Shown here: positions 56-47,747 of the stretch, in pieces
Layout of the letters: every line of letters starts with the position of its first letter
Numbering within the stretch: position 1 is the first letter of the stretch
Assembly: GCA_015066575.1 (NCBI GenBank)
Contig: SVOD01000002.1
Coordinates: 1 to 49,654 of the forward strand
Reading direction: 5' to 3'
DNA length: 49,654 bases
Source of the DNA: Oscillospiraceae bacterium
Lineage (GTDB): Bacteria; Bacillota; Clostridia; Oscillospirales; Acutalibacteraceae
Notes under the pieces: model-generated
The model's input: the letters and a program-made list of their open reading frames with translations, nothing else
What the model was told of the DNA's origin: nothing
Database searches by the model: none
Program-made: the position numbers and the translations under genes

Positions 56-116
56 CAGCGTGTCGAAAACAAGTTTTCGACACGCTGAAAAGACGGTGGC
101 ACCGTCTTTTTTTCTT
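56..116 (+). terminator. Tandem hairpins ending an off-window upstream + strand gene; the second is a Rho-independent terminator
   Basis: There is a perfect 15-nt inverted repeat cagcgtgtcgaaaac/gttttcgacacgctg at 56-87. It is followed by agacgg-tggca-ccgtct (91-107) and a T-run (107-115). Confidence 0.6.
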
Positions 117-195: not shown

Positions 196-256
196 TTGAC
201 AAAATATGAGGTTTTTCTATAAAATATTTGATTTATTTGTATATATATAGTATAAT
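196..256 (+). promoter_or_regulatory. Two candidate sigma-70-type promoters for the Dlt-like operon
   Basis: TTGACA (196-201), 16 nt, TATAAA (218-223). TTGATT (228-233), 17 nt, TATAAT (251-256). Both lie 60-120 nt upstream of the first gene in an AT-rich spacer. Confidence 0.4.
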
Positions 257-319
257 TATTTTGATTGTGAGTAAAAATAATCTAATAGCATCAATAGACA
301 TAATGTGGAGAATAATAAC

Positions 320-1831
320 ATGAAAAATGTTTTGGAATTTTTAGAAAACAGCACCGCCGCTTTCAGCGAAAAAACGGCGGTCAAAGATGATGTGCAGTCG
401 TATTCTTACCAAGAATTGTCGGCAAAGAGCCGCCAAATCGGCTCCGCGCTGTGCACCAAGACACCGACACGCAAGCCGATTGCCGTGCTCATGGAAAAGA
501 GTTGCGAAACCCTCGCCGCCTTTTTCGGCATTGCCTATGCGGGCTGCTGCTACACCCTGCTCAACCCCTCGCTGCCCGCTTCGCGCCTGCAACAAATTAA
601 AGAAGTACTCGGTGCGCACATCATCATTACCGATGCCGACCACCGCGAGTTTGCCGCAGAGATTGCCGCGGCAGGCGATGAACTTTTAGATATTGCCGCC
701 CTTTTGGAAACAGAAGAAGATGCCGCCGCACTCGCAGCCGTGCGCCGCGATGCCGTCGACACCGACCCGCTTTACATCAACTTTACTTCCGGCTCTACCG
801 GCGTGCCTAAGGGTGTTATTATCAACCACCGCAGTGTGCTGGATTTCATTCCCGTTTTCACCAAGACCTTCGGTATCGGCTCCGGCGATATTTTAGCCAA
901 CCAGGCTCCTTTTGATTTTGATGTATCGGTCAAAGATATTTATTCCGCCATGAGTACCGGCGCTACCCTCGTGATTGTACCCACGCGCCTGTTCTCCAGC
1001 CCCACCGATTTACTCGACTATTTGTGCGAGAATGAAGCCACGGTCATGGTGTGGGCGGTTTCGGCGCTGTGCCTGATTTCCACCTTCCACGGGCTGGATT
1101 ACAAAGTGCCTTCCACTGTCAAAAAGATTTTATTCAGCGGCGAGGTAATGCCCGCCAAACACCTTTCACAGTGGATGGAGAAACTCCCCGAAACAACCTT
1201 TGTCAACCTCTATGGTCCGACAGAGATTACCTGCAACTGTACCTACCACATTGTTGACAGAGAAGCCGACAACGACATTCTCCCGATTGGCAAACCCTTT
1301 GATAACGAGCGCGTATTCCTGCTTGATGATAACAACCACCTTGTCAGCGAATGCAATCAAACCGGTGAAATCTGTGTAGCAGGCACCGCCCTGTCCCCCG
1401 GCTACTTCAATGCGCCGGAGCAGACAGCCAAAGCCTTTGTGCAAAACCCGCTCAATCCCTACTATCCCGAAATCATTTACCGCACCGGCGACTTAGGGCG
1501 CTATGATGAAAACGGCAACCTGTTCTTCAGCGGCAGAAAGGATTTCCAGATTAAGCACATGGGGCACCGCATTGAGCTTGAAGAAATTGAGCGCGCGATT
1601 CACAGTGTAGAAGGCATCCGCCGCTGCTGCTGTATTTTCGATGAAAGAAAGAGCAAACTCTACGGCTTCTATATCGGCAACTACGAGCGGCGCGAGCTGT
1701 TCCAGCTTTTAAAGGACATGCTCCCCGAATTTATGATACCGGGTGCACTGCGCAAGGTGGATGAACTGCCGCTGACCAAAAACGGCAAGATAGACAGAAA
1801 AGCATTAAGGGAAAGGGTGATAAAAAAATGA
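320..1831 (+). CDS. DltA-like carrier-protein ligase (ANL adenylate-forming enzyme; D-alanine--D-alanyl carrier protein ligase homolog)
   Basis: The ORF runs 305-1831. I prefer the ATG at 320 because GGAG at 307-310 sits 9 nt upstream, while 305 is a GTG inside that RBS. Adenylation core motifs are present: YINFTSGSTGVPKG, NLYGPTE, YRTGDLGR, GRKDFQIKHMGHRIELEEIE, LTKNGKIDRKAL. The DltA-specific signature NQAPFDFDVSV is also present (Bacillus DltA has NQAPFSFDLSV). Confidence 0.9.
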   Translation: MKNVLEFLENSTAAFSEKTAVKDDVQSYSYQELSAKSRQIGSALCTKTPTRKPIAVLMEKSCETLAAFFGIAYAGCCYTLLNPSLPASRLQQIKEVLGAHIIITDADHREFAAEIAAAGDELLDIAALLETEEDAAALAAVRRDAVDTDPLYINFTSGSTGVPKGVIINHRSVLDFIPVFTKTFGIGSGDILANQAPFDFDVSVKDIYSAMSTGATLVIVPTRLFSSPTDLLDYLCENEATVMVWAVSALCLISTFHGLDYKVPSTVKKILFSGEVMPAKHLSQWMEKLPETTFVNLYGPTEITCNCTYHIVDREADNDILPIGKPFDNERVFLLDDNNHLVSECNQTGEICVAGTALSPGYFNAPEQTAKAFVQNPLNPYYPEIIYRTGDLGRYDENGNLFFSGRKDFQIKHMGHRIELEEIERAIHSVEGIRRCCCIFDERKSKLYGFYIGNYERRELFQLLKDMLPEFMIPGALRKVDELPLTKNGKIDRKALRERVIKK

Positions 1832-2997
1832 CAGAACAATGCAAGTTAGAACTTTTAGAGCGCTACCCCACTCCCTTTTATGTGTTTGACAGTGAGGTGC
1901 TGCGCGCGCGGGTGCAATTTTTAAAAGAACATTTACCCGCAGGAATTGAGCTGTGCTACGCTGTTAAAGCCAACACATTTATTTCTCCGTATATTGCGGA
2001 TTTAATCGACCGCTATGAAGTCTGCTCCCCCGGCGAACTTGCCATTTGCACCGAGCAGGCAATCGCGCCCGAAAAGCTGGTGATTTCCGGTGTTTACAAA
2101 ACGCCCGAATTAATCGAGGGGCACATTTGTTCCGACAACTGTGCCGGTCACTACACCGCCGAAAGTTTAGAGCAATTCACACTCTTAAAACAGGCGACGG
2201 TCACCTCCGGTAAAAAAATTAACATTTTATTGCGCTTAACTTCAGGCAACCAATTCGGTATGAACGAAGAGGATATTAAAGAAATTATCCGCACCGAAAA
2301 AGACAATGAGGCTTTTGAACTGTGCGGCATTCAATTCTTCTCGGGCACTCAAAAAACTTCCATGAAGAAGTATAAGCGCGAAATTACCCACTTGGGTGAA
2401 TTCTTAAACGAGCTGGAAAACGAACTCGGCTTTGTAAGCAAAGAACTCGAATACGGCACCGGCTTCCCGGTATATTATTTTGCCGATAGTAAGCCGTTTG
2501 ATGAAGCTGCATTTTTGGCGGAATTTAATGAGATTTTAGCTACTCTCGGCTACGATTGCCACATCAGCTTGGAGTTAGGCAGAAGTATCGCCGCTTCCTG
2601 CGGCTCCTACTTTACCAAAGCCGTTGACAGCAAGATGAATCACGGTGAGCGCTATGCGATTATGGACGGCGGCATTCACCACATTGCTTACTTCGGGCAA
2701 TTTATGGCGATGAAGCGCCCCTACTTTGACCTGCTTCCGCACCGCGAGGGTGAGCCGGAAGAGTGGAACCTCTGCGGTTCGCTGTGCACGGTCAACGACC
2801 TGCTGGTAAAAGGGTTGCCGCTTGCCGATTTCAAAATCGGCGATGTCATTGAATTTCAAAACGCAGGCGCCTACTGCCCGACCGAAGGCATTTCCCTTTT
2901 CTTAAGCCGCGCGCTGCCCGGTGTTCTTATCCTGGAAGAGGGCGGCAAGGTTACAAAGCTCAGGGGCGCTGCCGAAACCTATAAGTTTAATTACTAA
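1828..2997 (+). CDS. Fold-type III PLP-dependent decarboxylase (Orn/DAP/Arg decarboxylase family 2, LysA-like)
   Basis: The start overlaps the upstream stop (ATGA at 1828-1831). The N-terminus reads YPTPFYVFD...ELCYAVKANTF, which includes the PLP-lysine motif YAxKAN. The C-terminus has LCGSLCTVNDLL, matching the GxxCxxxD active-site Cys motif of DAP/ornithine decarboxylases. Confidence 0.85.
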   Translation: MTEQCKLELLERYPTPFYVFDSEVLRARVQFLKEHLPAGIELCYAVKANTFISPYIADLIDRYEVCSPGELAICTEQAIAPEKLVISGVYKTPELIEGHICSDNCAGHYTAESLEQFTLLKQATVTSGKKINILLRLTSGNQFGMNEEDIKEIIRTEKDNEAFELCGIQFFSGTQKTSMKKYKREITHLGEFLNELENELGFVSKELEYGTGFPVYYFADSKPFDEAAFLAEFNEILATLGYDCHISLELGRSIAASCGSYFTKAVDSKMNHGERYAIMDGGIHHIAYFGQFMAMKRPYFDLLPHREGEPEEWNLCGSLCTVNDLLVKGLPLADFKIGDVIEFQNAGAYCPTEGISLFLSRALPGVLILEEGGKVTKLRGAAETYKFNY

Positions 2998-3070
2998 AAC
3001 AGCACTTTTCCATTCGATATTATACATCAAGTATGTTCCGAAAAATATATAAACAACTAAGCGAGGAAAC

Positions 3071-4672
3071 ATGAGTTCTTATATATCAATAACATATTTA
3101 CTTATCTTCCTGCCCATCGTGGCACTGGTCTTCACAGTGGTGCCGCGAAAGGCAAAACCGTTTGTTCTGCTGGCAGCAAGCCTGGTGTTTATGTACCTGT
3201 GCAGCCATTTTTGGATTGTGTATTGGGTCTTTACCACCGTGAGCATCTTTGTCTCGGCTCTCTTGGTCGAAAAATCCAAGAAAAAATGCAAAGAGGCGTT
3301 GCCTGCCGCAGAAAACAGAGAACAAAAGAAAGCCATCAAAAAAAGCTTTGCGCGCAAGCAACTGCTGTTGGTGACGCTCATTATCGTTGCCAATATCGGT
3401 CTTTTGGCTGTGCTGCGCTATTCACAGTTTTTCGTTGCCAACTTCAATAAGGTACTGCAACTGTGCGGCAGTGATTTCCAATTTGCACTGCCGAAGTTTG
3501 CCGCTTGTATCGGTATTTCCTTCTACACCCTGCAGGCGGTTTCCTATATTCACGATGTCTATAAAGACAAGATTCAAGCCGACCATAATTTCGGCAGGCT
3601 GGCTCTGTATATGAGTTTCTTCCCGATTATTATGGAAGGCCCCATCTGCCGATACAGTGACACTGCCGAAAAATTATGGAGCGGCGAGAGAATTACTTAT
3701 AAAAATTTCACCTTCGGTATGCAGCGCATGGCGTTCGGTATTTTAAAGAAAGTGGTGGTTGCCGACCGCTTAAATGTTATTGTCACTTCCATTTTCAGAG
3801 AGTACCAATACTGCGATTATGACGGCGGCATTATTTTCCTCGGCGCCGTACTGTATACGATTGAATTGTATATGGAATTTTCCGGTACGATTGATGTGGT
3901 CATCGGCAGCGGCGAAATCTTCGGCGTAACCATTCCCGAAAACTTCCGTCAGCCTTTCTTCTCCAAGAGCATTACCGAATTTTGGCAACGCTGGCACATT
4001 ACGCTGGGTACCTGGTTCAGAGATTATATCTTCTACCCCGTGACCATGAGCAAGCCCATGAAAAAGCTGACCAAGAGCGCCCGCAAAAAACTCGGCAGAA
4101 ACTACGGACCGATGCCGGCAAGCATTTTTGCCTTCGGTTGCGTGTGGCTGTGCAACGGCTTGTGGCACGGTGCCGGTTGGGAGTTCATCTTCTTTGGCTT
4201 CTACCACTTTGTGCTCATTTCTCTGGGCAGTTTGATTTTACCCGTTTCCACCAGACTGTTTGAAAAGTGGCATTTTGACCGCAACAAATTGCCCTACCGC
4301 ATCTTCACCATAGTGCGCACGGCGATTTTGGTCTGCATCGGCGAAATGTTCTTTAACTCCAGAGGCTTAAGCGAAGGAATGAAAATGTTTAAGGTGCTTG
4401 TCACCAAATTCACCTTCAAATCCTTCTTTAACGGCGCGATTTTCACCATGGGTATCGACCGCTTCGATTACATCATTGTGCTCGTGGTGATTCTCTTGGT
4501 ATTCGCTGTCGGTTTGATGAAAGAAAAGGGCATTTCCCCGCGCGAGTGGATTGCGCAAAGAAATGTGGTTATTCGCTGGAGCATTTTCTTTGCAATGATT
4601 CTTTTCATTGTCATATTCGGCGCTTACGGCACGGGTTATATTCCGATTGACCCGATTTATGCGAATTTCTAA
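3071..4672 (+). CDS. MBOAT-family membrane O-acyltransferase (DltB/AlgI-like), paralog 1
   Basis: The 533-aa product is polytopic and hydrophobic. It carries the MBOAT catalytic-His block FWQRWHITLGTWFRDYIFYPV. RBS GAGG lies upstream of the ATG. Confidence 0.9.
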   Translation: MSSYISITYLLIFLPIVALVFTVVPRKAKPFVLLAASLVFMYLCSHFWIVYWVFTTVSIFVSALLVEKSKKKCKEALPAAENREQKKAIKKSFARKQLLLVTLIIVANIGLLAVLRYSQFFVANFNKVLQLCGSDFQFALPKFAACIGISFYTLQAVSYIHDVYKDKIQADHNFGRLALYMSFFPIIMEGPICRYSDTAEKLWSGERITYKNFTFGMQRMAFGILKKVVVADRLNVIVTSIFREYQYCDYDGGIIFLGAVLYTIELYMEFSGTIDVVIGSGEIFGVTIPENFRQPFFSKSITEFWQRWHITLGTWFRDYIFYPVTMSKPMKKLTKSARKKLGRNYGPMPASIFAFGCVWLCNGLWHGAGWEFIFFGFYHFVLISLGSLILPVSTRLFEKWHFDRNKLPYRIFTIVRTAILVCIGEMFFNSRGLSEGMKMFKVLVTKFTFKSFFNGAIFTMGIDRFDYIIVLVVILLVFAVGLMKEKGISPREWIAQRNVVIRWSIFFAMILFIVIFGAYGTGYIPIDPIYANF

Positions 4673-4684
4673 GGGGGTGCCGCA

Positions 4685-5662
4685 ATGAAAAAGATTTTTA
4701 GTAAAGACAATATCAAAAAGTTCCTTGCCTGTGTGCTCTTTATCGCCATCGGCGTCGGTTTATTAGGCGGTGCTTCCTACCTCTTTACACCGGAACGCTT
4801 TCACACCGATACGGTCAAGGATGTAAAACCTTACGGTCTGCTCGCCGAACCCGAGAATACGATGGATGCCATCATCTACGGCGACAGTGAAGCGTTTTCC
4901 GCCTTTTCCCCCGTGCAGATGTGGGAAGAGCACGGCTTTACCTGCTATGTGTGCTCCAGTGCCTCGCAGTACATCTCGTTAACCGAGAGCTTTGTGCGCC
5001 AAACTTTGGAACACCAACAGCCGCAAGTCGTCTTTTTGGAAACGAATGCCATTTACAGAAAGATGAATTCGGATGACCCGGGGCTCAACCAAATCGAAAA
5101 AACCTTGCCTGTCTTTAAATACCACAATCTGTGGAAAAACATTGACCCCGCCGGCATCAACGAAAATGAAAACGATTACTGCTGGCAGGATGATTTAAAA
5201 GGCTTTAAGTATATTGACATCATCAACAAGTCCTCCCATCCGGACTATATGAAGAAAACCAAACAATATAAAAAAGTGCCCGGTTCCAACCTGCAGCATG
5301 TACAAAACATTTACGACATCTGCCGGCAAAAAGGCGTGGAGCTGGTGCTGGTGAGTGCGCCGAGTACGGTCAACTGGAACTATGCCAAGCACAATATGAT
5401 GGTCAAACTCTCCAAACAGTTAGGTGTTAAGTACATCGACCTAAACCTGGAAAAGAGCATCGGCTTGGATTGGAACCACGATACCTGTGACCGCGGCGAC
5501 CATGTCAATTACTACGGCGCGACCAAGGTCACTAAATTCTTCGGTAACTACGCCGCCGAAACCTTCTCGCTGCCCGACCACCGCGGCGACCCCGCCTACA
5601 AAGACTGGGCACAGTTGAAGGTGAAGTATGAAGAAGTTATCGCCAGAAGCAAAACCAAGTAA
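4685..5662 (+). CDS. Membrane-anchored SGNH/DltD-like extracytoplasmic protein, paralog 1
   Basis: It has a single N-terminal TM helix (FLACVLFIAIGVGLLGG). IIYGDSEAFSAFSP resembles GDS block I, and the C-terminal DRGDHVNYYG resembles the D-x-x-H block V. The RBS is AGGGGG. It follows an MBOAT gene, as DltD and AlgJ/X partners do. Confidence 0.7.
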   Translation: MKKIFSKDNIKKFLACVLFIAIGVGLLGGASYLFTPERFHTDTVKDVKPYGLLAEPENTMDAIIYGDSEAFSAFSPVQMWEEHGFTCYVCSSASQYISLTESFVRQTLEHQQPQVVFLETNAIYRKMNSDDPGLNQIEKTLPVFKYHNLWKNIDPAGINENENDYCWQDDLKGFKYIDIINKSSHPDYMKKTKQYKKVPGSNLQHVQNIYDICRQKGVELVLVSAPSTVNWNYAKHNMMVKLSKQLGVKYIDLNLEKSIGLDWNHDTCDRGDHVNYYGATKVTKFFGNYAAETFSLPDHRGDPAYKDWAQLKVKYEEVIARSKTK

Positions 5663-5711
5663 ACAAAGCGGGTTCCCCGCTGACAAATAAATGATTTAAG
5701 GAGAAAACATT

Positions 5712-5939
5712 ATGGACAGATTAATTGAAATTTTGGAAGACATTCAGCCCGATGCGGATTATGAAACCTGCACCACTTTGATTGACGACCACATTTTAGG
5801 TTCACTTCAAATCATCTCGCTCGTTGCGGAAATCGAAGATGAATTTGACATCACCATCCCCACCGTGGAAATCAAGCCCGAAAACTTTAACTCTGCCAAA
5901 AGCCTGATGGCAATGATTGAAAGATTAGAAGACGAATAA
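5712..5939 (+). CDS. Small acyl/aminoacyl carrier protein (DltC-like)
   Basis: The product is 75 aa and acidic, with a helical carrier-protein pattern ...DDHILGSLQIISLVAEIEDEFDI... Ser31 is the candidate phosphopantetheine site. RBS AAGGAG sits 8 nt upstream. The gene lies between dlt-type genes. Confidence 0.75.
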   Translation: MDRLIEILEDIQPDADYETCTTLIDDHILGSLQIISLVAEIEDEFDITIPTVEIKPENFNSAKSLMAMIERLEDE

Positions 5940-5955
5940 GAATTAACCCCTGCCT

Positions 5956-7563
5956 ATGCAAATTACATCTTATATATCTGTAGCCTATCTCGCAGTCTTT
6001 TTGCCTGCGGCATTACTCTTATATACGATTGTGCCAAAAAAGGTAAGACCCTTTGTATTATTAGCTGCCGGTTTTACCTTTTTTTGGTTTATCAGCGAGT
6101 TCCTCATCGCCTACCTTTTGGTATCCATCCTCAGCATTTATCTGATTGGTCTGTGGCTGGAGCAGCTCAAAGGTAAGCGCGCCGCCGCACTGTCTGCGGC
6201 AAGCGATAAAGAAGAAAAAAAGCGCATCAAAAAGCAAAGCCAAACGCGGCAACTGCTGGTGGTGCTGTTGGGCGTACTTATCAACATCGGCATTCTTGCC
6301 GTGCTCAAGTATTCCCCCTTCTTCTTTACCAATGTCAATTTGATTTTACGCCTGACGCATGCCAAGGTCGGCGTGGAAGTGCCGCAGTTTTTAACACCCA
6401 TCGGCATTTCATTCTACTCGTTGCAAGCCGTTTCCTACCTGCACGATGTATATAAAGACAAAATAAAAGCCGACCGCAATCTCGCGCGCGTCGCACTGTT
6501 TATGTCGTTCTTCCCTGTTATAATGGAAGGGCCTATTTGCCGCTATAGCGATACTGCCGATGCACTCTATTCCGGCGAAAGACTGCATTACAAAAACCTT
6601 ACCTTCGGCGCGCAGCGCATCGCTTTCGGCATCTTTAAAAAGATTGTCATTGCCGACAGGCTTAACATCTTTGTGACTACCATTTTTAAAGACTACGAAG
6701 CCTTTGATTATGACGGCGGGTTAATTTTGCTCGGCGCTATCTTTTATACGATTGAGTTGTATATGGAATTTTCCGGCACGATTGATGTGGTTATCGGTAG
6801 CGGCGAAATGTTCGGTGTGCGCGTGCCCGAAAACTTCCGCCAGCCGTTTTTCTCCAAAAGCATTACCGAATTTTGGCAACGCTGGCACATCACGCTGGGC
6901 ACCTGGTTTAGAGATTATATCTTCTACCCCGTGACCATGAGCAAGCCCATGAAAAAGTTGACCAAAAGCGCCCGCAAAACGCTTGGTCGGCACTACGGAC
7001 CGATGCCGGCAAGTATTATTGCGTTTTTCTGCGTTTGGTTCTGTAACGGTTTGTGGCACGGCGCCGGTTGGCAGTTCATCCTGTTCGGGATGTATCACTT
7101 TGTGCTCATTTCCCTGGGCAGTTTAATTCTGCCGCTCTCCAATCTCGTGTTGGGCAAACTCAAAATTGACCGCAATAAATTCCCGTATAAACTCTTTACG
7201 ATTCTGCGCACCGCTTTGCTGGTGAGCATCGGCGAAATGTTTTTCAACTCGCGCGGTTTTCACGACAGCATCCATATGCTCAAGCGCATCCTGACAACCT
7301 TCACCTTTAAATCATGGTTTGACGGCTCTGTTTTCAGTTTGGGATTAGACCCCTATGATGTGCTGATTTTAGTCATCGCCATCGCTGTGGTCTTTACTAT
7401 CGGCATCATCAAAGAAAAAGGCAAGTCGCCGCGCGAATGTATTGGCGCAAAACCGATTTTCGTGCGCTGGCCGATTTATATTGCACTGGTCGTAAGTATC
7501 ATTGTGTTCGGTGCCTACGGCGCGGGTTACATTCCGATTGACCCGATTTATGCCAATTTCTAA
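5956..7563 (+). CDS. MBOAT-family membrane O-acyltransferase (DltB/AlgI-like), paralog 2
   Basis: The 535-aa product is colinear with 3071-4672, at roughly two-thirds identity by eye, and has the identical FWQRWHITLGTWFRDYIFYPVTMSKPMKKLTKSARK block. Confidence 0.9.
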   Translation: MQITSYISVAYLAVFLPAALLLYTIVPKKVRPFVLLAAGFTFFWFISEFLIAYLLVSILSIYLIGLWLEQLKGKRAAALSAASDKEEKKRIKKQSQTRQLLVVLLGVLINIGILAVLKYSPFFFTNVNLILRLTHAKVGVEVPQFLTPIGISFYSLQAVSYLHDVYKDKIKADRNLARVALFMSFFPVIMEGPICRYSDTADALYSGERLHYKNLTFGAQRIAFGIFKKIVIADRLNIFVTTIFKDYEAFDYDGGLILLGAIFYTIELYMEFSGTIDVVIGSGEMFGVRVPENFRQPFFSKSITEFWQRWHITLGTWFRDYIFYPVTMSKPMKKLTKSARKTLGRHYGPMPASIIAFFCVWFCNGLWHGAGWQFILFGMYHFVLISLGSLILPLSNLVLGKLKIDRNKFPYKLFTILRTALLVSIGEMFFNSRGFHDSIHMLKRILTTFTFKSWFDGSVFSLGLDPYDVLILVIAIAVVFTIGIIKEKGKSPRECIGAKPIFVRWPIYIALVVSIIVFGAYGAGYIPIDPIYANF

Positions 7564-7575
7564 GGAGGTGAAGAA

Positions 7576-8544
7576 ATGGATAAAATAGATAAAAAACTCG
7601 CGATTAAAAAAATCATCGGCGCTGTTATTTTTATTCTTCTGTTAGCGCTGGTTCTGCTTATCATTTCCTATTTCTTTGCCCCGCAAAAGGACAAAAGCAT
7701 TACAATGCAGGATGTCAAGCCCAACGGTATTTTGGCAGAAAAAGACCAAACCATTGATGTGATTTTATTCGGCGACAGTGAAGCCTACACCGCATTCTCC
7801 CCCATCCAAATGTGGCGGGATAACGGGTTTCCTTCCTTTGTGTGCGCAAGTTCCTCACAGTATGTTTCCCTTACGGAGAGTTTTGTGCACCAGGCACTTG
7901 AGCACCAAACGCCCAAAGTCGTGATTCTTGAAACCAACGCTTTTTACAGAAAAATGCGTTCGGATAATGCGTTCATAACACGCGTCGAGAATATGTTTTC
8001 CGTTTTGCAGTACCATAACCGCTGGAAAACGCTTTGCCCGCTGAAGTTGGATAAAAATGTCAACTATAATTGGAAAGACGATATGAAAGGCTATAAATAT
8101 GCCAAGCTTTCCACCAAGGGCAATAATAAAGAATATATGATTAAGACCGACGAGATTGAGCCCATCCCCGAAACAAACGCACGCTATGTGGGGCAAATTG
8201 CGGACTACTGCCGCAAAAAAGGGGTGAAGGTACTTTTGGTGAGCACACCCAGCTCCAAAAACTGGAACTACAAGCGGCATAACGCGGTTGCTGCCCTTGC
8301 CCAAAAAATCGGCACCGAGTATTTGGATTTAAACCTGCAAAAAGAAATCCAAATTGATTGGCATACCGACACGGCGGATGCCGGCGACCACTTGAATTTC
8401 CGCGGCACCAAAAAGGTCTGCGCCTTCTTGGGTGATTATTTGGCAAAAACATACCACCTCGCGGATAAGCGGAACGACCCCGCCTACCAAGAGTGGAATG
8501 ACTTAATCACAAAATATGAATATTTAACAGCAGAAAACAAATAA
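7576..8544 (+). CDS. Membrane-anchored SGNH/DltD-like extracytoplasmic protein, paralog 2
   Basis: The 322-aa product is colinear with 4685-5662 (ILFGDSEAYTAFSP; DAGDHLNFRG). The RBS is AGGAGG. The TAA stop lies inside the first hairpin of the downstream repeat element. Confidence 0.7.
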   Translation: MDKIDKKLAIKKIIGAVIFILLLALVLLIISYFFAPQKDKSITMQDVKPNGILAEKDQTIDVILFGDSEAYTAFSPIQMWRDNGFPSFVCASSSQYVSLTESFVHQALEHQTPKVVILETNAFYRKMRSDNAFITRVENMFSVLQYHNRWKTLCPLKLDKNVNYNWKDDMKGYKYAKLSTKGNNKEYMIKTDEIEPIPETNARYVGQIADYCRKKGVKVLLVSTPSSKNWNYKRHNAVAALAQKIGTEYLDLNLQKEIQIDWHTDTADAGDHLNFRGTKKVCAFLGDYLAKTYHLADKRNDPAYQEWNDLITKYEYLTAENK

Positions 8545-8851: not shown

Positions 8852-10420
8852 ATGAAAATTTTTCACGGTAACATATTAACTTTAGATGATAAGAATACCA
8901 CCGCTGCTTACCTGGTGGAAGAGGGCGGCAAAATTGCCTTTGTCGGCGATACCCTGCCTGAGAAGTACACCGCCGGTGAAATTGTGGAATTAGGCGAAAG
9001 AGCACTCATTCCCTCTTTTGCGGATACACACATTCACTTTGCTTCCTTTGCCACCTTCCATGCAGGGCTCAATGTGATGGAAGCGACAAGTAATAAGCAG
9101 ATTTTGCAAATGCTCAAATCTTATGCCGCCACGGCAAAAGAAAAACTGCTCATCACCTTCGGCGCTTCCCCCTACTCGGTGGAAGAAGGCAGGCTGGTCA
9201 ACCGCGAAGAATTGGACAGCGTTTGCCTCGATAAACCGGTCTTTATGGTCAAGTATGACGGGCACGCCTGCGTGGTCAACACAGCGCTGCTTAAAAAAAT
9301 TGAGAAGAAAGTGTGCAACCTGCGCGGCTACCACCCCGATTCGGGCGAAATGAACCAGGAAGCCTTCTTTGCCGTCAGCGACTATGTCACCAACTCTATT
9401 CCGATTTTGAGTTTGGTCAAGAATATGCAAAAAGCCGCCGACTTTATGGCAGGCAAGGGCATCGGTATGATTCACACGGTCAGCGGTGTCGGCTTTACGG
9501 CGGATATGGATGTAGATATGGAGCGCTGGTGCGGCAGAGGCTTTGAAAACGGTATGCAGCTGCGCGTATTTATGCAAACGATGACGGTTAAAAACGCGCT
9601 CAAGCGCAAGTTACCGCGCATCGGCGGTTGCTTTGCCTGCGCGCTTGACGGTTGCTTCGGCTCCGAGGATGCCGCGATGAACGAGCCCTATGAAGGCGGC
9701 GATAACAGCGGCGTACTGTATTACAGCGATGAACAGGTCATTGCCTTTTGTAAAGAAGCCAACCGCGCCGGCTTACAGATTGAAATGCACGCCATCGGCG
9801 ACAAAGCCTTTGACCAGGCAACCCGCGCGCTCAAAGCGGCGCTTGACGATTATCCGCGCGAGGACCACCGCCACGCCATTATTCACGATTGCCTGCCGAC
9901 AGAGGAAGGCATCAAAATCTGCGCCGACTACCATATTGCCATGCCGGTGCAAACCGCCTTTATTGACTGGCGCCAGGAGCCGGATGCCTATCTGGAAAAA
10001 ATTCTCGGCAAAGAGCGTTGCCGAAAACTCAACCCGATTAAAACATTTTTAGACAGCGGCATTGTTATGGGTGCAGGCTCGGATGGTCCCTGTACTTCCC
10101 CCGACCCGGTTGTGTGGCTGCACAAGGCGTGTAACCACGCTGTGCCGGAGCAGTCCATCAGTGTGTATGAGGCGCTGAGAATGTGCACCTACAACGGCTA
10201 TTGGCTGACATTTGATGAAAAAGAGCGCGGCAGTTTGGAGGTCGGCAAAATTGCCGATATGGTCATTCTCTCCGAAAACCCTTATGCTATCCCGGTCAGC
10301 GAACTAAAGCGCCTGAAAGTCGAGCAGCTCTACCTGCAAGGCAAAGAATACCGCCCCTGCCAAAAAGGCGCCGTGGGGCAGATTCTCTCCGGCATAAGAA
10401 ACAAAACGGCGAAAATTTAG
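8852..10420 (+). CDS. Amidohydrolase-family metal-dependent hydrolase (Amidohydro_3 / YtcJ-like)
   Basis: The product is 522 aa. It has an H-x-H metal motif (FADTHIHF), plus HAIGD and GSDGP blocks. RBS GGGAG lies upstream. Confidence 0.8.
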   Translation: MKIFHGNILTLDDKNTTAAYLVEEGGKIAFVGDTLPEKYTAGEIVELGERALIPSFADTHIHFASFATFHAGLNVMEATSNKQILQMLKSYAATAKEKLLITFGASPYSVEEGRLVNREELDSVCLDKPVFMVKYDGHACVVNTALLKKIEKKVCNLRGYHPDSGEMNQEAFFAVSDYVTNSIPILSLVKNMQKAADFMAGKGIGMIHTVSGVGFTADMDVDMERWCGRGFENGMQLRVFMQTMTVKNALKRKLPRIGGCFACALDGCFGSEDAAMNEPYEGGDNSGVLYYSDEQVIAFCKEANRAGLQIEMHAIGDKAFDQATRALKAALDDYPREDHRHAIIHDCLPTEEGIKICADYHIAMPVQTAFIDWRQEPDAYLEKILGKERCRKLNPIKTFLDSGIVMGAGSDGPCTSPDPVVWLHKACNHAVPEQSISVYEALRMCTYNGYWLTFDEKERGSLEVGKIADMVILSENPYAIPVSELKRLKVEQLYLQGKEYRPCQKGAVGQILSGIRNKTAKI

Positions 10421-10465
10421 CCGCTTTGTTTCGATAACAGATAACGGAATACAGGCAACAGAAAA

Positions 10466-10501
10466 GCGCGAATATATTGACAGATATCAATATATTCGCG
10501 C
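10466..10501. terminator. Bidirectional hairpin between convergent genes
   Basis: A perfect 15-bp stem gcgcgaatatattga / tcaatatattcgcgc with a 6-nt loop is followed by TTATTTATT. It sits between the + strand amidohydrolase stop (10420) and the - strand gene stop (10529). Confidence 0.6.
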
Positions 10502-10528
10502 TTATTTATTATTTGTGCCTGCGTATCA

Positions 10529-11047: not shown

Positions 11048-11416
11048 TTACTGTTTCGAACTTTTATTGTCGTTATTCTTTGCGGTAGTTATAGAGGCAA
11101 TTAACATTCTTTGAATCGTTCCCCGCACGTTATTTAACTGCTTATACTCTTTTTCACAAATGAGGCTTTGCCTAAACAACACTTCCAGCCAATACTCTGT
11201 TTCCGAACATTCTTTAAGCGATATTTCAAGTTTATTAATAAAATCCGCTCTGCTCTGAGCATACTTAGCCTCAAAAAGATTTGCTCCAATTGAGGAAGAA
11301 GATTTAATGATTTGTTGTTTGTAAACTTGATTTCCTTTAATATCTTTACACACTTCGGCAACCGAAATTGCAAATGTAATCGACATCTCTCTTAAATCAT
11401 TTTTATTATGTTTCAT
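11048..11416 (-). CDS. Four-helix-bundle protein (23S rRNA intervening-sequence protein / Avd-like family)
   Basis: The product is 122 aa. The pattern ...IIKSSSSIGANLFEAKYAQSRADFINKLEISLKECSETEYWLEVL... is typical of this family. RBS AGAGGA lies 5 nt upstream of the ATG at 11416. Confidence 0.8.
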   Translation of the reverse strand: MKHNKNDLREMSITFAISVAEVCKDIKGNQVYKQQIIKSSSSIGANLFEAKYAQSRADFINKLEISLKECSETEYWLEVLFRQSLICEKEYKQLNNVRGTIQRMLIASITTAKNNDNKSSKQ

Positions 11417-11629: not shown

Positions 11630-11653
11630 TGTGCGCGCCCTACACTTCAAAAA
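11592..11653. repeat. Right copy of the ~60-bp direct repeat; overlaps the last codons and stop of the AlaX gene
   Basis: See 10982-11041. The AlaX stop (cta = TAG at 11640-11642) and its last 4 codons lie inside this copy. Confidence 0.85.
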
Positions 11654-12782
11654 ATCTTTTTATTTTTTCCAACCGCGCACAAAAACTGCCTCTTGCCATA
11701 TTGTCGCGCCCGCCGCCCTTGCCGCCGAGTGCGGCATTGGCTTCTTTAACCAAAGAGCCGATATCCGTTTCTTTGGCGGTTATCACATAGCGGTAGCCGT
11801 TGTTGTCATCGCCTTCGAGCACCACGATGATGCCGCCGACCTTATCTTTCAAGCCATCGGCAAACAGGCGCAAATCATCGCCCCGAAAATCACATACGGC
11901 AAGGTAGTTGCCGGCGGTCGGCACGACTGCCGCCACCGCTTCTGCCACCGCTTTGCGCTTGAGACCGACCAACTCATATTCCGCCGCTTCCTTCGCCGCC
12001 TTGAGTTTTTCTACGGCTGTGGCGGTTTTTTCTATTTTGGCACATAACAGGTGCGATATTTCCTGCGCCTGCCCCAACAGCATTGTGTAGTGCTCCAGCG
12101 CGCGCTCACCGCACTGTATCCACAGCTTGGTGCCGCCTTTGTAAGATTCGCTGCCGGTAATTTTAATGAGCCCTACCTGCCCCGTGCGCACGCAGTGCGG
12201 CGCACAACAGGCGCACACATCGGTGCCCTCAATTTCGACTAAGCGCACATTTTGTGTCAAATCCAATTTGGAGCGATAGTCTGTTTTTGCCAAGCTCTCG
12301 GCATCGGGGTAATAAGCACGCACGCCGACATTGCTGAAAACCACCGCATTGGCTTCTTTTTCCACCTGCGCGAGCAGCTCGTTACTTAGCGGCACATTAA
12401 AAGCGAGCGTAGTTTCACTGTCGGTAAGCGAAAACGAAATATTATCCGCCCCCGTGTGCATATGAATAATGCCGGAAACAATATGCTCCCCCGTGTGGTT
12501 TTGCATTCTGGAAAAGCGCTGTTCCCAATGGAGTCTGCCGCATACTGTGCCGGATATTTCTTCTTTTAAGTAGTGATAAATCACACCATCCTTTTCCTGC
12601 ACATCCAGGACCTCTTTGCCGCAAAGCGTGCCGCCGTCTGCCGCCTGCCCGCCGCCTTCGGGGAAAAACGCGGTTTTATCTAAAACCACCGCATAGCGCT
12701 TTCCCTGTTTTTCGCAGGAAAGCACCTGCGCTTCAAATTCTTTTATAAACGCATCTTCATCAAATAAACGAATTGTCTTCAT
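11640..12782 (-). CDS. alaX: Alanyl-tRNA editing protein, AlaX-L type (tRNA_SAD editing domain + C-terminal DHHA1-like domain)
   Basis: The 380-aa product has the zinc/editing motifs HTGEHIVSG (HxxxH) and CACCAPHC (CxxxH). Confidence 0.8.
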   Translation of the reverse strand: MKTIRLFDEDAFIKEFEAQVLSCEKQGKRYAVVLDKTAFFPEGGGQAADGGTLCGKEVLDVQEKDGVIYHYLKEEISGTVCGRLHWEQRFSRMQNHTGEHIVSGIIHMHTGADNISFSLTDSETTLAFNVPLSNELLAQVEKEANAVVFSNVGVRAYYPDAESLAKTDYRSKLDLTQNVRLVEIEGTDVCACCAPHCVRTGQVGLIKITGSESYKGGTKLWIQCGERALEHYTMLLGQAQEISHLLCAKIEKTATAVEKLKAAKEAAEYELVGLKRKAVAEAVAAVVPTAGNYLAVCDFRGDDLRLFADGLKDKVGGIIVVLEGDDNNGYRYVITAKETDIGSLVKEANAALGGKGGGRDNMARGSFCARLEKIKRFFEV

Positions 12783-25369: not shown

Positions 25370-25546
25370 ATGGATATTCAAGTCGGTCAAATTATCAAAA
25401 CCAGGAAGCCGCACCCCTGTTCGGGCGATGAATGGGAAGTGCTGCGCGTCGGGATGGATTTCAAACTCAAGTGCCTCACCTGCGGCAGAGAAGTCATGGT
25501 CCCGCGCAAAAAGGCGGAAAAATCCATCAAACAAATCATAAAGTAG
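25370..25546 (+). CDS. DUF951-family small protein (58 aa; not in the supplied ORF track)
   Basis: My own translation is [58 protein letters not shown]. It matches the HPCG..W...R.G.D...KC..CG..VM.PR pattern I recall for DUF951, a family that commonly precedes translation genes in Firmicutes. Confidence 0.7.
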
Positions 25547-25557
25547 GTACAGCACAG

Positions 25558-26637
25558 ATGTTAGATAAATTAGAAGGCATTTACAGCCGCTTCCAAACCG
25601 TAACCGAGCAGCTTTGCTCTCCCGAAGTGGTTTCCGATATGGAAAAATACACTTCGCTGATGAAAGAGCAAAAGAAGCTCGAACCGATTGTTGAAAAATA
25701 CAAGGAATTAAAAACCGCCACCGCGAATGCCGCCGAAGCGGAACAGCTGCTTGAAGAAGGCGGTTCGGATAAAGAGCTCAAAGAGCTCGCCGTGGAGGAA
25801 CTCAAGCAGGCAAAGGAACAAATTGAAACCTGCACGGAGGAGTTGAAAATTCTCCTGCTCCCCCGCGACCCGAATGATGATAAAAACGTCATTGTCGAAA
25901 TCCGCGGTGGTGCCGGCGGTGAAGAAAGCGCGCTTTTTGCAGGCACGCTTTACAGAATGTATACCATGTACGCCGAGTCCAAAGGATTTAAGCACGAAGT
26001 GCTTTCGGCGCAGGAAACCGGGCTTGGCGGCTTTAAAGAAATCTCCTTTTCCATTTCGGGCGACGGCGCCTATTCCCGCTTCAAGTTTGAAAGCGGCGTA
26101 CACCGCGTACAGCGCGTGCCGGAAACCGAAAGCCAGGGGCGCATCCACACCTCGACCTCTACCGTAGCGGTTCTTCCCGAAGCGGAGGAAGTCGATATTG
26201 ATATCAACCCGACCGATTTGCAGATTGATACCTTCCGCTCCAGCGGTGCCGGCGGGCAACACATCAACAAAACCGAAAGTGCGATTCGTATCACCCACAT
26301 CCCGACCGGTACGGTCGTAGAATGTCAGGACGAACGCAGCCAACATAAAAACAAAGATAAGGCGATGAAAATTCTGCGCTCGCGCATTTTGGAAAAAGAG
26401 CGCGAAAAGCAAAACGCGGAAATCGCCGGCGACCGCAAAGCGCAGGTCGGCACCGGCAACCGCAATGAGCGTATCCGAACCTATAACTACCCGCAGGGCA
26501 GAGTCAGTGACCACCGCATCGGCTTAACGCTCTATAAATTAGAGCAGATTTTAAACGGTGATTTGGATGAACTCATTGACGCTTTGATTACCGCGGATAC
26601 CGCAGAAAAACTTCGCGCCAGCGAATCAGAAACATAA
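25558..26637 (+). CDS. prfA: Peptide chain release factor 1
   Basis: The start MLDKLEGIY... is at 25558. The supplied ORF start at 25432 overlaps DUF951 in another frame. The GGQ motif [14 protein letters not shown] and the RF1 tripeptide region [14 protein letters not shown] are present. Confidence 0.93.
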
Positions 26638-26653
26638 AGGAATTCTCATATCC

Positions 26654-28948
26654 ATGAACACAAAGGTTTTTACCAAAAATGAATTACGGGAAGCCGCTGC
26701 CATCATCAGAGAAGGCGGCGTGGTCGCGATGCCTACCGAAACGGTCTACGGTCTTGCCGCAAACGCGTTAGATACCGAAGCGGTCAAGAAGATTTACGAA
26801 GCAAAGGGCAGGCAGAGCGACAATCCGCTGATTGTGCATATTGCCAATATCTCCGACTGGGGCAAGCTGGTCGAGCAGATTCCGCAAAACGCCAAGCTCT
26901 TAGCTGAGCGTTTTTGGCCGGGTCCGCTGACCATTGTGCTCAAAAAGAGCCCTCTGGTGCCCGACATTGTCAGCGGCGGGTTAGATACCGTGGCAGTCAG
27001 AATGCCAAAAAACAAGATTGCTTTCCGATTCATTAAAGAGTGCGGGGTGCCGCTCGCCGCGCCGAGTGCCAATATTTCCGGTGCACCCAGCCCCACCAGG
27101 TTTTCCCATGTTTTTCAGGATATGAACGGTAAAATTGATGGGATTATAGACGGCGGCGACTGCATGGTCGGTTTGGAATCGACTGTCATTTCCCTGGTCG
27201 AAGATATCCCGACCATTTTGCGGCCGGGCAGAATTACTGCCGAGCAAATCCGCAAAGTCATCGGTGAGGTCACCATTCACCACACGGCGACCGGTGAACT
27301 GGCAGCGGGTGAAAAGCCCCTGTCACCGGGCATGAAATATAAGCACTACGCACCGCGCGCCGCGCTGCAATTGGTTAAAGGCAGCGACACCGATTATATT
27401 ACTTATATCAAAGAGCACGCAGCAGAGAATACCGCCGTGATTTGTTTCAACGAAGACTTGAATGCGCTTACCGACTACAACACCTTCTCTTTGGGTGCCA
27501 AGCTCGATAGTGTTACCCACGCAAAGCGCCTGTTTGATATTCTCAGAGCCATCGATGATAAGGGGCTGACAGAAGCCTTTGCCCCGCTGGCACAAAACAA
27601 CGGTGTGGGGTTGGCGGTCAATAACCGCCTGCTGCGCGCTGCCGGCTTCAATATCATTGACTTAACACTTGTTTCTTCCACCGATACCGCGCAAGACTCA
27701 CAACAGGGTGCACAGGACACGGCAGACAATATAAACCCGGTTGATTTAAAGGAACTCGGCGACAACAAAATTGAAACCGCCGCTTCTGCCGACACGCAGG
27801 AGGATACAGGGGTGCAAAAAGCACCGCAGCCTGCGCAACAAAGTGAAACCGCCGCCGCGAAAGCACCGGAAGAGGCTCCTGAACAGGCACAGAACACGAC
27901 TCCCGCGCCTCAAAGCGAAAGCAGCGAAAACGACACACCGGATGACCCGCTCGCCGTAACACTCGGCACAATGGAAGAGGACTCGGCGATTTTGGCGCTT
28001 AACGATATCCGTTTCGGTGAAGATTTCAACGAAGATTTCAGCAAAGCCATTAGCGATAATATCACCGTAGTCGAAAAGACCGAAGAAGACGACCCCACAA
28101 AAATCTTCTATGAAGCCCTCATTGATGAGGACGGTATTAAACCTGCCGCTTACCCGGTTGATACCATCGATGAAGACTTCCAATTCGATGTCTACGACGA
28201 TGATATCCCGAAAAGAAAAGGCTTGTTTTCTCGCATTTTCGGCAAAAAAGAAGAGGAAGAAGACATCGAACCCGAACCCTTCCTGCCGCTGCCGAATGCC
28301 CGATGGAATTCCCAAGCCGCTCTTCAAGAAGACGGTGGCGCACACGAACCTGCAACCCCCGCCGAAAAGGCAGATAGAATCGGGGGCGAGAAGTATGAGA
28401 AAATTCCCGGCATTCGTGTTGTCGGTATCACCGGTAAAAGCGGTTGCGGCAAAACCTATATTGCTAACCGCTTGGCCACCAAGACACCCAACAGCATTGT
28501 AATCAACGCCGATGATGTCTACCACTCTATGTTGAACAGCGACAGCTTGGTGCTGAGCATCGTCGTCGCATTCGGCGACGAGGTTTTGGACGGAAAAACC
28601 ATCAACCGCAAAAAATTAGCTTCGCTTGCCTTTAGCAGCGAAGAGAATTTAAATAAGCTGAACCGCACAGTATTGCCGGCGGTAGCGCAAAAAATCATTT
28701 CTTTGATTGAGCACGCCAAGGCAAGCGGTGTCAAAACTGTCTTTTTGGATGCGCCCACACTCATTGAAAGCGGGCTTAATCAAGTGTGTAATGAAGTAAT
28801 TTTCATTATCGCCGACCCGGCAATCCGCCAGGAGCGCATTGTGGAAAGAGATAATATTACGCTCGATGAAATCGGTCAAAGAATGCGCTTTGAGAAGGAT
28901 GATACCTTCTATGTGCGCTATGCCGACAGAATTATTCGCAACAATTAA
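26654..28948 (+). CDS. Fusion protein: L-threonylcarbamoyladenylate synthase (Sua5/TsaC, YrdC + Sua5 domains), ~220-aa acidic linker, dephospho-CoA kinase (CoaE)
   Basis: The N-terminus has AMPTETVYGLAANAL and KGRQSDNPLIVHI (YrdC), then ESTVISL...ILRPGRIT...PGMKYKHYAPRA (Sua5 C-domain). Residues ~345-570 are D/E/Q/T/P-rich low complexity. The C-terminus has VVGITGKSGCGKTYIANRL (P-loop) and ...INADDVYHSML..., which are CoaE-like. It is a single uninterrupted 764-codon ORF. Confidence 0.8.
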   Translation: MNTKVFTKNELREAAAIIREGGVVAMPTETVYGLAANALDTEAVKKIYEAKGRQSDNPLIVHIANISDWGKLVEQIPQNAKLLAERFWPGPLTIVLKKSPLVPDIVSGGLDTVAVRMPKNKIAFRFIKECGVPLAAPSANISGAPSPTRFSHVFQDMNGKIDGIIDGGDCMVGLESTVISLVEDIPTILRPGRITAEQIRKVIGEVTIHHTATGELAAGEKPLSPGMKYKHYAPRAALQLVKGSDTDYITYIKEHAAENTAVICFNEDLNALTDYNTFSLGAKLDSVTHAKRLFDILRAIDDKGLTEAFAPLAQNNGVGLAVNNRLLRAAGFNIIDLTLVSSTDTAQDSQQGAQDTADNINPVDLKELGDNKIETAASADTQEDTGVQKAPQPAQQSETAAAKAPEEAPEQAQNTTPAPQSESSENDTPDDPLAVTLGTMEEDSAILALNDIRFGEDFNEDFSKAISDNITVVEKTEEDDPTKIFYEALIDEDGIKPAAYPVDTIDEDFQFDVYDDDIPKRKGLFSRIFGKKEEEEDIEPEPFLPLPNARWNSQAALQEDGGAHEPATPAEKADRIGGEKYEKIPGIRVVGITGKSGCGKTYIANRLATKTPNSIVINADDVYHSMLNSDSLVLSIVVAFGDEVLDGKTINRKKLASLAFSSEENLNKLNRTVLPAVAQKIISLIEHAKASGVKTVFLDAPTLIESGLNQVCNEVIFIIADPAIRQERIVERDNITLDEIGQRMRFEKDDTFYVRYADRIIRNN

Positions 28949-47717: not shown

Positions 47718-47747
47718 CTCATTCGAAATATATTCCGAGGTATGGTT

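Follow-up and report, generated by a model that had tools for sequence, protein, structure and literature searches.

We analysed a 49,654-nucleotide (nt) window, positions 1 to 49,654 of contig SVOD01000002.1 from an Oscillospiraceae bacterium (assembly GCA_015066575.1). Near its start lies an operon of seven open reading frames (ORFs), all on the + strand and tightly packed from about 305/320 to 8544, as read from an ORF list with translations. The operon encodes an adenylation enzyme (A), a pyridoxal-phosphate (PLP) decarboxylase-family enzyme (P), a carrier protein (C), two membrane-bound O-acyltransferases (MBOATs; M1 and M2) and two SGNH-fold proteins (S1 and S2). It probably charges the carrier with an acidic amino acid, removes a carboxyl group while the amino acid is bound, and transfers the product to a surface polymer. 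The features of the locus are as follows.

320–1831 (+): A, stand-alone amino-acid adenylation enzyme; 503 aa when read from ATG 320, within an ORF that opens at GTG 305
1828–2997 (+): P, fold-type III PLP decarboxylase-family enzyme, BtrK-like, 389 aa
3071–4672 (+): M1, MBOAT, 533 aa, with two extra C-terminal transmembrane helices and PIYANF; lineage-specific duplicate
4685–5662 (+): S1, membrane-anchored SGNH-fold protein, 325 aa (Ser68, His273), putative extracytoplasmic O-acyltransferase; lineage-specific duplicate
5712–5939 (+): C, carrier protein, 75 aa; putative phosphopantetheine site Ser31
5956–7563 (+): M2, MBOAT, 535 aa, with fused shuttle motif; orthologue of the conserved cassette's single MBOAT
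7576–8544 (+): S2, membrane-anchored SGNH-fold protein, 322 aa; orthologue of the conserved cassette's single SGNH gene
87–111 (+): terminator-like hairpin, an 11-pair stem followed by a T-run, closing the upstream transcription unit
196–256 (+): two overlapping sigma-70-like promoter candidates, TTGACA-18-TAAAAT (196–225) and TTGATT-17-TATAAT (228–256)

The stop of A and the start of P overlap as ATGA (1828–1831), and the remaining intergenic gaps along the operon measure 73, 12, 49, 16 and 12 nt. A first-pass annotation, made by a model from the letters and an ORF list, had described seven packed, co-directional genes with this overlap and gaps of 12–73 nt; the ORF list confirms that description, and the YAVKAN, CGSLCTVND, WHITL and GDS...DH motifs that it pointed out are all found in the translations. 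Read from GTG 305, A would have 508 aa rather than 503. ATG 320 is the likelier start; it sits nine bases after a GGAG (307–310), and the 503-aa product is also called by gene callers on four metagenome contigs. The promoter candidates, identified by consensus match alone, agree with the sigma-70 consensus at 11/12 and 10/12 positions, and the next gene downstream of S2 starts about 300 nt further on. Four of nine metagenome contigs with an identical P (L081–L084) all end 370–440 nt upstream of A, near the start of the window, which suggests a repeat or another assembly-breaking sequence at that point.

Families were assigned by hidden Markov models (HMMs). A (AMP-binding/TIGR01733), P (Orn_Arg_deC_N and Orn_DAP_Arg_deC), M1 and M2 (MBOAT), and C (PP-binding) all score above the curated cut-offs of Pfam and NCBIfam, whereas S1 and S2 have no match among Pfam or NCBIfam HMMs.

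A search with a profile of P homologues recovered relatives in the genomes of at least 560 species. The hosts are mostly Oscillospiraceae, Lachnospiraceae, Agathobaculum and Acetobacterium, with Traorella as an outlier; most are poorly studied gut or rumen Clostridia, and outliers also occur in Erysipelotrichales and Coriobacteriia. For the gene neighbourhood we rely on 80 loci (numbered with the prefix L) fetched around P homologues, each from a different species, in all of which the gene for P lies within a cassette. The conserved core of this cassette is five co-directional genes in the order A-P-C-M-S, all present in 72 of the 80 loci. Incomplete loci lie at contig ends (L005, L014, L052, L071, L075) or have broken A or M ORFs (L066, L017); in L039 the M-S pair is missing without explanation. 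P stands between A and C in every one of the 76 loci that have C. Because the order A-P-C-M-S recurs co-directionally across the 80 loci, the arrangement is not a product of chance, and the operon is a genuine unit shared by hundreds of gut and rumen Clostridia. In the literature that we searched, we found nothing relevant to a prior description of it.

The first-pass annotation had taken two tandem MBOAT/SGNH pairs as a hallmark and proposed a neighbourhood search for the adenylase and decarboxylase together with a double MBOAT. The five-gene association recurs as counted above, whereas the double MBOAT does not: the order A-P-M-S-C-M-S occurs only in the window and in L001–L003, three close relatives from ruminant-gut genomes (78–85% identical), and the conserved cassette has a single pair. 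M2 shares 69% identity with the MBOAT of the single-pair locus L004 and M1 62%; S2 shares 58% with the S protein of L004 and S1 42%. M1 and M2 are 64% identical to each other, S1 and S2 49%. By these identities M1-S1 is the lineage-specific duplicate, and the SGNH partner has diverged faster. Elsewhere the S gene alone has multiplied behind one MBOAT, with four copies in L074 (13025–17035; Clostridiales bacterium NK3B98) and two in L019 (7740–9706; a Candidatus Onthomonas genome). These tandem arrays suggest that a single MBOAT can supply several transferases, and multiplication of S alone fits S as the component that chooses the acceptor.

A is a stand-alone amino-acid adenylation enzyme. It scores 348 bits on TIGR01733, the generic model (cut-off 317), and falls below both DltA equivalog cut-offs (TIGR01734, 297.5 against 559.85; NF003417, 306.9 against 476). 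Its similarity to the adenylation domain of LgrA module 2, from a nonribosomal peptide synthetase (NRPS; 219 bits), is about equal to that with Bacillus cereus DltA (217 bits), so that the earlier description of A as a clear DltA homolog was an overstatement. In B. cereus DltA, Leu197, Met200 and Cys268 line a cavity that takes the methyl group of D-Ala, and selectivity for the D-form is imposed by the Cys (PMC8972799; PMC4176424). A has Val, Lys and Ser at the corresponding positions 236, 239 and 301, with no variation among 76 orthologues. This replacement of the D-Ala cavity argues that A is not a canonical D-Ala enzyme; with the sub-cut-off scores it rules out canonical DltA as an identity for A and, as far as pocket residues and HMM scores can tell, bears out the expectation that the adenylase is not specific for D-Ala.

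The specificity code of A, read by alignment to a GrsA segment, is DVKVLSLCNK. As a control, Escherichia coli EntF (NC_000913.3) passed through the same column mapping returned DVWHFSLVDK, the known EntF Ser code, so the mapping is sound. D235, V236, K239, S301, C330 and K517 are invariant in the 76 orthologues. The pocket is otherwise like a small Ser pocket, with V236, S301 and L322 shared, 5 of 10 code positions identical to EntF, and 5–6 of 10 identical to Ser codes. A plasmid tblastn search gave only NRPS and ZmaJ matches, and ZmaJ, which loads Ser, is among the best annotated plasmid relatives of A (33% identity). Compared with a Ser pocket, the floor residue Trp239 has become Lys and the hydroxyl ligand His278 has become Ile, Val or Thr in the A orthologues. 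Ser was judged an unlikely substrate with both of these residues replaced.

The simplest explanation for an invariant, cationic Lys239 at the bottom of so short a pocket is that the substrate, Asp or Glu, bears a second carboxylate, and the small, Ser-like pocket favours Asp over Glu. Lys, beta-alanine (beta-Ala) or gamma-aminobutyrate (GABA) as the adenylated species would be hard to reconcile with Lys239, and Lys and diaminopimelate (DAP) appear unlikely substrates by the same pocket reading. The earlier proposal that Glu, Asp or DAP is loaded is thereby narrowed: an acidic amino acid stands, with Asp ahead of Glu, and the Lys/DAP option seems unlikely. If the substrate is still dicarboxylic when it is adenylated, A would act before decarboxylation, which would then occur on the carrier rather than on the free amino acid.

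P has the domain content of a fold-type III decarboxylase. It scores 55.3 bits on PF02784 (cut-off 23.4) and 41.7 bits on PF00278 (cut-off 23). The PLP lysine K47 and the cysteine C320 are invariant in the family, and the conserved motifs include FSGTQK, ELGRS (ExGR), DGGIHH, LCTxND and GAYC. The best match in the Protein Data Bank (PDB) is BtrK, the L-glutamyl-[BtrI carrier protein] decarboxylase, which converts gamma-Glu-S-BtrI to GABA-S-BtrI. By profile, BtrK scores 154 bits, SbnH 151 and LysA at most 144; by single-sequence search, BtrK scores 95, LysA 77 and SbnH 74 bits. The analogy to BtrK drawn in the first-pass annotation therefore holds, in that BtrK is the best solved relative by both measures. 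BtrK, SbnH, AcsE, FigC and MccE decarboxylate amino acids that are conjugated through the side chain, and they form one branch of the fold (PMC7857480).

On the LysA equivalog TIGR01048, P reaches 143.7 bits against a cut-off of 297.9. In a residue-level alignment, the LysA motifs that bind DAP, HIGSQ, DAGMNDLIRPxxY and CE[ST]GD, are all replaced in P:

LysA (Aquifex) HIGSQ; P FFSGTQ; BtrK VYTGTQ
LysA (Aquifex) DAGMNDLIRPSIY; P DGGIHHIAYFGQ; BtrK DGGMHHHAAS
LysA (Aquifex) CETGD; P CTVND; BtrK CTPED

Common to P and BtrK are DGG[MI]HH, LCT and [YF][ST]GTQ. Gone from P are the LysA residues for the distal end of DAP, namely the Glu of CE[ST]GD and the Arg and Tyr of LIRPxxY. A housekeeping LysA was rejected for P on the HMM score and the lost DAP-binding motifs, which settles a doubt that had been raised about the enzyme; no lysA gene lies within the window. 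Alanine racemase was likewise rejected, on domain content and PDB ranking. P has a weak, partial Ala_racemase_N match (32 bits, cut-off 24.1; residues 21–199), and PDB alanine racemases match it at about 6e-6, over the barrel only, whereas decarboxylases match at about 1e-44 to 4e-44, and its C-terminal domain is of the decarboxylase type, above cut-off. NCBI labels the homologues of P 'alanine racemase', a name that rests on the partial match to the N-terminal barrel and that these comparisons do not support.

The carrier C passes PF00550 (21.6 bits, cut-off 20.8) and falls below the cut-offs of the DltC equivalogs: NF003464, its best NCBIfam match, gives 34.2 against 68, and TIGR01688 gives 19.9 against 52. 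Ser31, the putative phosphopantetheine site, is invariant in 79 orthologues.

The MBOATs combine a DltB-like core with an additional C-terminal region. M1 and M2 score 47.8 and 55.2 bits on PF03062 (cut-off 27) and 147–159 bits on the DltB equivalog TIGR04091 (cut-off 375). The catalytic His309 in WHITL is invariant across 80 MBOAT sequences. The DltB-like core ends near residues 429–430, and the roughly 100 residues beyond it include two hydrophobic helices and close with ...IDPIYANF. The C-terminus reads P-[I/M]-Y-A-x-F, with Tyr530 and Phe533 (M1 numbering) invariant across 80 family members; its first residue is Pro, not Phe as in the FXYXXF acyl shuttle. In Dlt systems this shuttle is carried by the microprotein DltX, and in PatA, AlgI and their relatives by the MBOAT itself, fused behind two additional helices; PatA of Neisseria gonorrhoeae terminates in FIYANF, where the Tyr becomes auto-acetylated and passes the acetyl group on to the SGNH protein PatB (PMC12148441). 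A fused Tyr shuttle on extra helices accounts for the large size of the MBOATs against the roughly 400 aa of DltB, which the first-pass annotation had left as an oddity, and for the absence of DltX: they are of the PatA/AlgI type. No DltX-like microprotein was found among operon ORFs of at least 60 aa or among called genes; shorter ORFs were not searched. Pathways with fused-motif MBOATs and SGNH proteins are stated to have no carrier protein (PMC12148441), and the cassette is an exception.

An AlphaFold2 model of S1, built from an alignment of 44 sequences, has a mean predicted confidence (pLDDT) of 84.7 and consists of a transmembrane helix (7–33) and an SGNH fold. With this model, Foldseek returned TesA/GDSL esterases at E ~5e-6, PatB at 1.9e-4 and DltD at 7.6e-4; DltD ranked only 43rd, after generic esterases. 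GDS68 and D269, G271, D272 and H273 are invariant in the S family, and S2 shares the invariant residues. On the strength of the model, S is a membrane-anchored SGNH protein and not demonstrably a DltD orthologue, and its N-terminal anchor would place the active site outside the membrane. In the databases, most S homologues go by the name 'hypothetical protein'.

Upstream of the cassette, a histidine kinase and an OmpR-type regulator occur in 28 of the 65 loci that have at least 3 kb of upstream sequence, directly adjacent in 16; 3 loci also have a Bce-type ABC ATPase and a double-FtsX permease between the regulator and the cassette. In L065 (3161–8017), where such a Bce-type module adjoins the cassette, an OmpR-type regulator and a short histidine kinase are accompanied by an ABC ATPase and by a permease, about 720 aa long, that carries two FtsX domains; similar modules lie immediately upstream of the cassette in L054, L073 and L069/L080. 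Bce-type and two-component modules of Bacillota typically sense peptide antibiotics, and one controls dlt in Staphylococcus aureus. The two-component context lends circumstantial support to a function in envelope charge or stress. Directly upstream in L001, the closest relative (P 85% identical), lies a peptidoglycan-remodelling set (2336–8216): a YkuD L,D-transpeptidase, VanY, an S11 DD-carboxypeptidase, a VanX-like M15 D-Ala-D-Ala dipeptidase and DUF218. A 'Wzt-like' ABC cluster, considered as a clue to the acceptor, was set aside because it proved to be a heterogeneous set of ABC ATPases that does not point clearly to teichoic acid or polysaccharide.

From these gene contents and orders, conserved residues and family assignments, we infer the substrate, the order of steps, the acceptor and the physiological role. 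A would adenylate the side-chain carboxyl of an acidic amino acid, most likely the beta-carboxyl of L-Asp, with the gamma-carboxyl of Glu as the alternative, and would thioesterify the amino acid to the phosphopantetheine arm of C; Asp235 would hold the amino group and Lys239 the still-free alpha-carboxylate. P would strip that alpha-carboxylate from the carrier-bound amino acid, yielding beta-alanyl-S-C (or GABA-S-C). The MBOAT, through His309, would carry the acyl group across the membrane to the Tyr of its own C-terminal motif (Tyr530), from which Ser68 of the SGNH protein would accept it and esterify an extracytoplasmic polymer, for example a teichoic acid or wall polysaccharide, adding a cationic amine. 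The duplicated M1-S1 pair would draw on the same donor and probably serve a second acceptor or position.

Confidence differs between the parts of this proposal. The general scheme of side-chain loading, on-carrier decarboxylation and transfer to the envelope by an MBOAT-SGNH relay we consider an even call. As to the acyl group, beta-Ala is a tentative assignment, GABA is quite unlikely, and another decarboxylated product is improbable. Chemistry would favour beta-Ala: its ester should be stable, whereas that of GABA is open to cyclisation to a lactam and those of alpha-aminoacyl groups are labile. That many gut and rumen Clostridia place carrier-made beta-alanyl (or GABA) esters on a wall or membrane glycopolymer by way of a PatA-type MBOAT is a plausible generalisation, which we hold at somewhat less than even confidence.

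Several considerations weigh against the proposal. The whole scheme is a prediction from sequence, and the assignment of the substrate rests on ten pocket positions. Asp235 is kept as in adenylation domains for alpha-amino acids, so A may activate the alpha-carboxyl of Asp or of another polar amino acid, in which case P could not alpha-decarboxylate on the carrier. Adenylation domains for side-chain carboxyls in microcystin synthesis (McyE/McyB) may carry Arg239, for which a literature search gave no confirmation. The lead of BtrK over LysA and SbnH is narrow, so the link to carrier-tethered substrates is suggestive, not diagnostic; the His of HIGSQ that stacks on PLP is Phe in P (Tyr in BtrK). 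The acceptor polymer is not readable from the conserved neighbourhood, and the wall polymers of bacteria are not known to bear beta-alanyl or GABA esters.

The alternative that survives best, though we think it unlikely, keeps the same export route and has A activate an alpha-carboxyl, that of L- or D-Asp, Ser or another small polar amino acid. P would then act off the carrier, for example by making or removing a free precursor, or by other PLP chemistry on the tethered residue, such as epimerisation or the beta-decarboxylation of an alpha-aspartyl-S-carrier, and the polymer would receive an alpha-aminoacyl ester. Asp235 and Lys517 of A, kept as in adenylation domains for alpha-amino acids, speak for this reading, as do the agreement with the EntF Ser code at 5 of 10 positions, the 33% identity to Ser-loading ZmaJ, and the retention in P of the Lys and Cys that flank C-alpha in this fold. 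The same pocket, however, has lost the Ser-hydroxyl ligand His278 (Ile, Val or Thr) and has Lys for Trp239, and decarboxylation of the free substrate would deprive A of the second carboxylate that Lys239 suggests. To our knowledge, the decarboxylase branch of the fold contains no racemase or beta-decarboxylase, and the position of P between A and C in 76 loci is what would be expected of an enzyme that acts on the loaded carrier. We give little credence to the particular variant in which alpha-aspartyl-S-carrier is beta-decarboxylated to alanyl-S-carrier.

A divergent but ordinary dlt operon, in which A, C, M and S are DltA, DltC, DltB and DltD and P is an alanine racemase supplying D-Ala, is improbable. 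The DltA, DltB and DltC models are indeed the best or near-best named NCBIfam matches of A, M and C, P has its 32-bit Ala_racemase_N match and its NCBI label, and VanX-, VanY- and DD-carboxypeptidase-like genes lie upstream in L001. All Dlt equivalogs nonetheless stay far below cut-off (297 against 560, 147–159 against 375 and 34 against 68 bits), the D-Ala cavity is changed with loss of the enantioselectivity Cys, P has a decarboxylase C-terminal domain and matches decarboxylases ahead of racemases, and the MBOATs are of the PatA/AlgI type with a fused shuttle rather than DltB plus DltX.

The chance is slimmer still for lysylation by way of DAP, in which A would load meso-DAP on C and P would convert it to L-lysyl-S-carrier at the distal D-centre, or P would make free Lys for A, and leave a doubly cationic lysyl ester on the envelope: P is kin to LysA (144 bits on TIGR01048 and 144 for PDB LysA by profile) and Lys239 could take the distal carboxylate of DAP, but P lacks the LysA residues that grip the distal end, the short, Ser-like pocket of A is lined by bulky Ile/Val278, Leu299 and Leu322 with no acidic residue for the distal amine, direct activation of Lys contradicts the invariant Lys239, and no gain over direct Lys loading is evident.

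Beyond the operon, the window holds chromosomal housekeeping genes (type III glutamine synthetase, GlmS, RF1/RF2, Sua5) and large surface proteins. About 300 nt after the operon, an Amidohydro_3 hydrolase of 522 aa (8852–10420, +) is followed by a strong bidirectional terminator-like hairpin (10464–10503) that ends its gene. An Amidohydro_3 gene lies downstream in L001 and in none of the other 79 loci, which puts it outside the conserved cassette. Located between the operon region and a gene for AlaX-like tRNA editing (11640–12782) is a small gene of the 23S rRNA intervening-sequence protein family (11048–11416, −; PF05635, from its match in L081). Two PCRF/RF-1 family release-factor genes, presumably prfA and prfB, are found at 25432–26637 (+) and 47742–48863 (+), the latter a single uninterrupted ORF of 373 aa. 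An ORF of 764 aa (26654–28948, +) unites Sua5/YrdC and Sua5_C (threonylcarbamoyl-AMP synthase) with a C-terminal CoaE (dephospho-CoA kinase) domain, an unusual fusion. Between 30461 and 44370 (−), very large ORFs of 635, 1696, 400, 381 and 1365 aa are almost without Pfam matches, the exceptions being a cohesin domain in the protein of 1365 aa and weak matches to CarboxypepD_reg/SdrD_B; they probably encode cell-surface proteins.

D-alanylation of teichoic acids is a major factor in resistance to cationic antimicrobial peptides, in autolysis and in host interaction. If our proposal of on-carrier decarboxylation followed by transfer to the envelope is true, the cassette would add to D-alanylation a second, chemically different system that acylates the envelope with amino acids. 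It would represent a previously unrecognised cationic modification of the envelope and the first use in cell-envelope chemistry of the on-carrier decarboxylation logic of antibiotic biosynthesis. On chemical grounds, a beta-alanyl ester should outlast a D-alanyl ester and so give a longer-lived charge modification. The cassette also breaks the current rule that fused-shuttle MBOATs use acyl-CoA and that use of a carrier is restricted to DltB, and the analysis corrects a systematic mis-annotation in the databases, of P homologues as 'alanine racemase' and of S homologues as 'hypothetical protein'. Culturable carriers (Catenibacillus scindens, Acetobacterium carbinolicum, A. wieringae, Agathobaculum, Coprococcus intestinihominis and Traorella massiliensis) make the prediction directly testable.

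Comparison with known systems supports the first-pass view of a non-canonical, Dlt-like and carrier-dependent MBOAT/SGNH system with an integral enzyme of the PLP decarboxylase family. Like Dlt (DltA, DltC, DltB, DltX, DltD), the cassette has an adenylase that loads a small carrier, an MBOAT fed by the carrier, a Tyr hexapeptide shuttle and an anchored SGNH protein, and both often adjoin two-component systems of envelope stress. The cassette differs in its adenylase pocket (Val/Lys/Ser in place of Leu/Met/Cys), in reaching no Dlt equivalog cut-off, in its integral gene of the PLP decarboxylase family, in a shuttle fused to the MBOAT on two extra helices where Dlt has the DltX microprotein, and in an SGNH protein of about 320 aa that is not recognisably DltD.

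The export half resembles the O-acetylation systems PatA/PatB and AlgI/AlgJ, which likewise join an MBOAT core to two C-terminal transmembrane helices and a terminal x-I-Y-A-N-F and use a separate Ser/His SGNH partner. Those systems draw on acetyl-CoA and have no carrier (PMC12148441), whereas the cassette encodes an adenylase, a carrier and a PLP enzyme; the motif of PatA starts with Phe and that of the cassette MBOAT with Pro.

For the donor half, parallels come from biosynthesis. The BtrI/BtrJ/BtrK system of butirosin pairs a fold-type III PLP decarboxylase with a small carrier, and P shares the motifs of BtrK. The product there enters an aminoglycoside side chain without any MBOAT, and the carrier is loaded by an ATP-grasp ligase, not by an adenylation enzyme. 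In vicenistatin biosynthesis, VinN loads 3-methyl-Asp on the stand-alone acyl carrier protein VinL, and the PLP enzyme VinO decarboxylates it only after the thioester has formed; in fluvirucin biosynthesis, Asp is the substrate of FlvN, and its decarboxylation on the carrier yields a beta-alanyl starter unit (PMC11284099). A stand-alone adenylase, a stand-alone carrier and a PLP decarboxylase are the same parts as A-P-C, a likeness drawn by description and not by sequence; these systems belong to actinobacterial secondary metabolism and pass their product to a polyketide synthase for macrolactam polyketides. The exosortase-A-associated pair (TIGR03098/TIGR03099) of Gram-negative exopolysaccharide loci likewise couples an AMP-forming ligase to a PLP decarboxylase, and TIGR03099 is the best NCBIfam match of P (171.4 bits); this is far below its cut-off of 478.45, as is the 195.6 bits on TIGR03098 against 592.35, and phylum and surrounding genes differ. 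Taken together, the cassette draws its parts from known families, and there is a precedent for every step; its novelty lies in combining a carrier-fed, PatA-type MBOAT with a putative on-carrier decarboxylase, and in the product that it is predicted to make.

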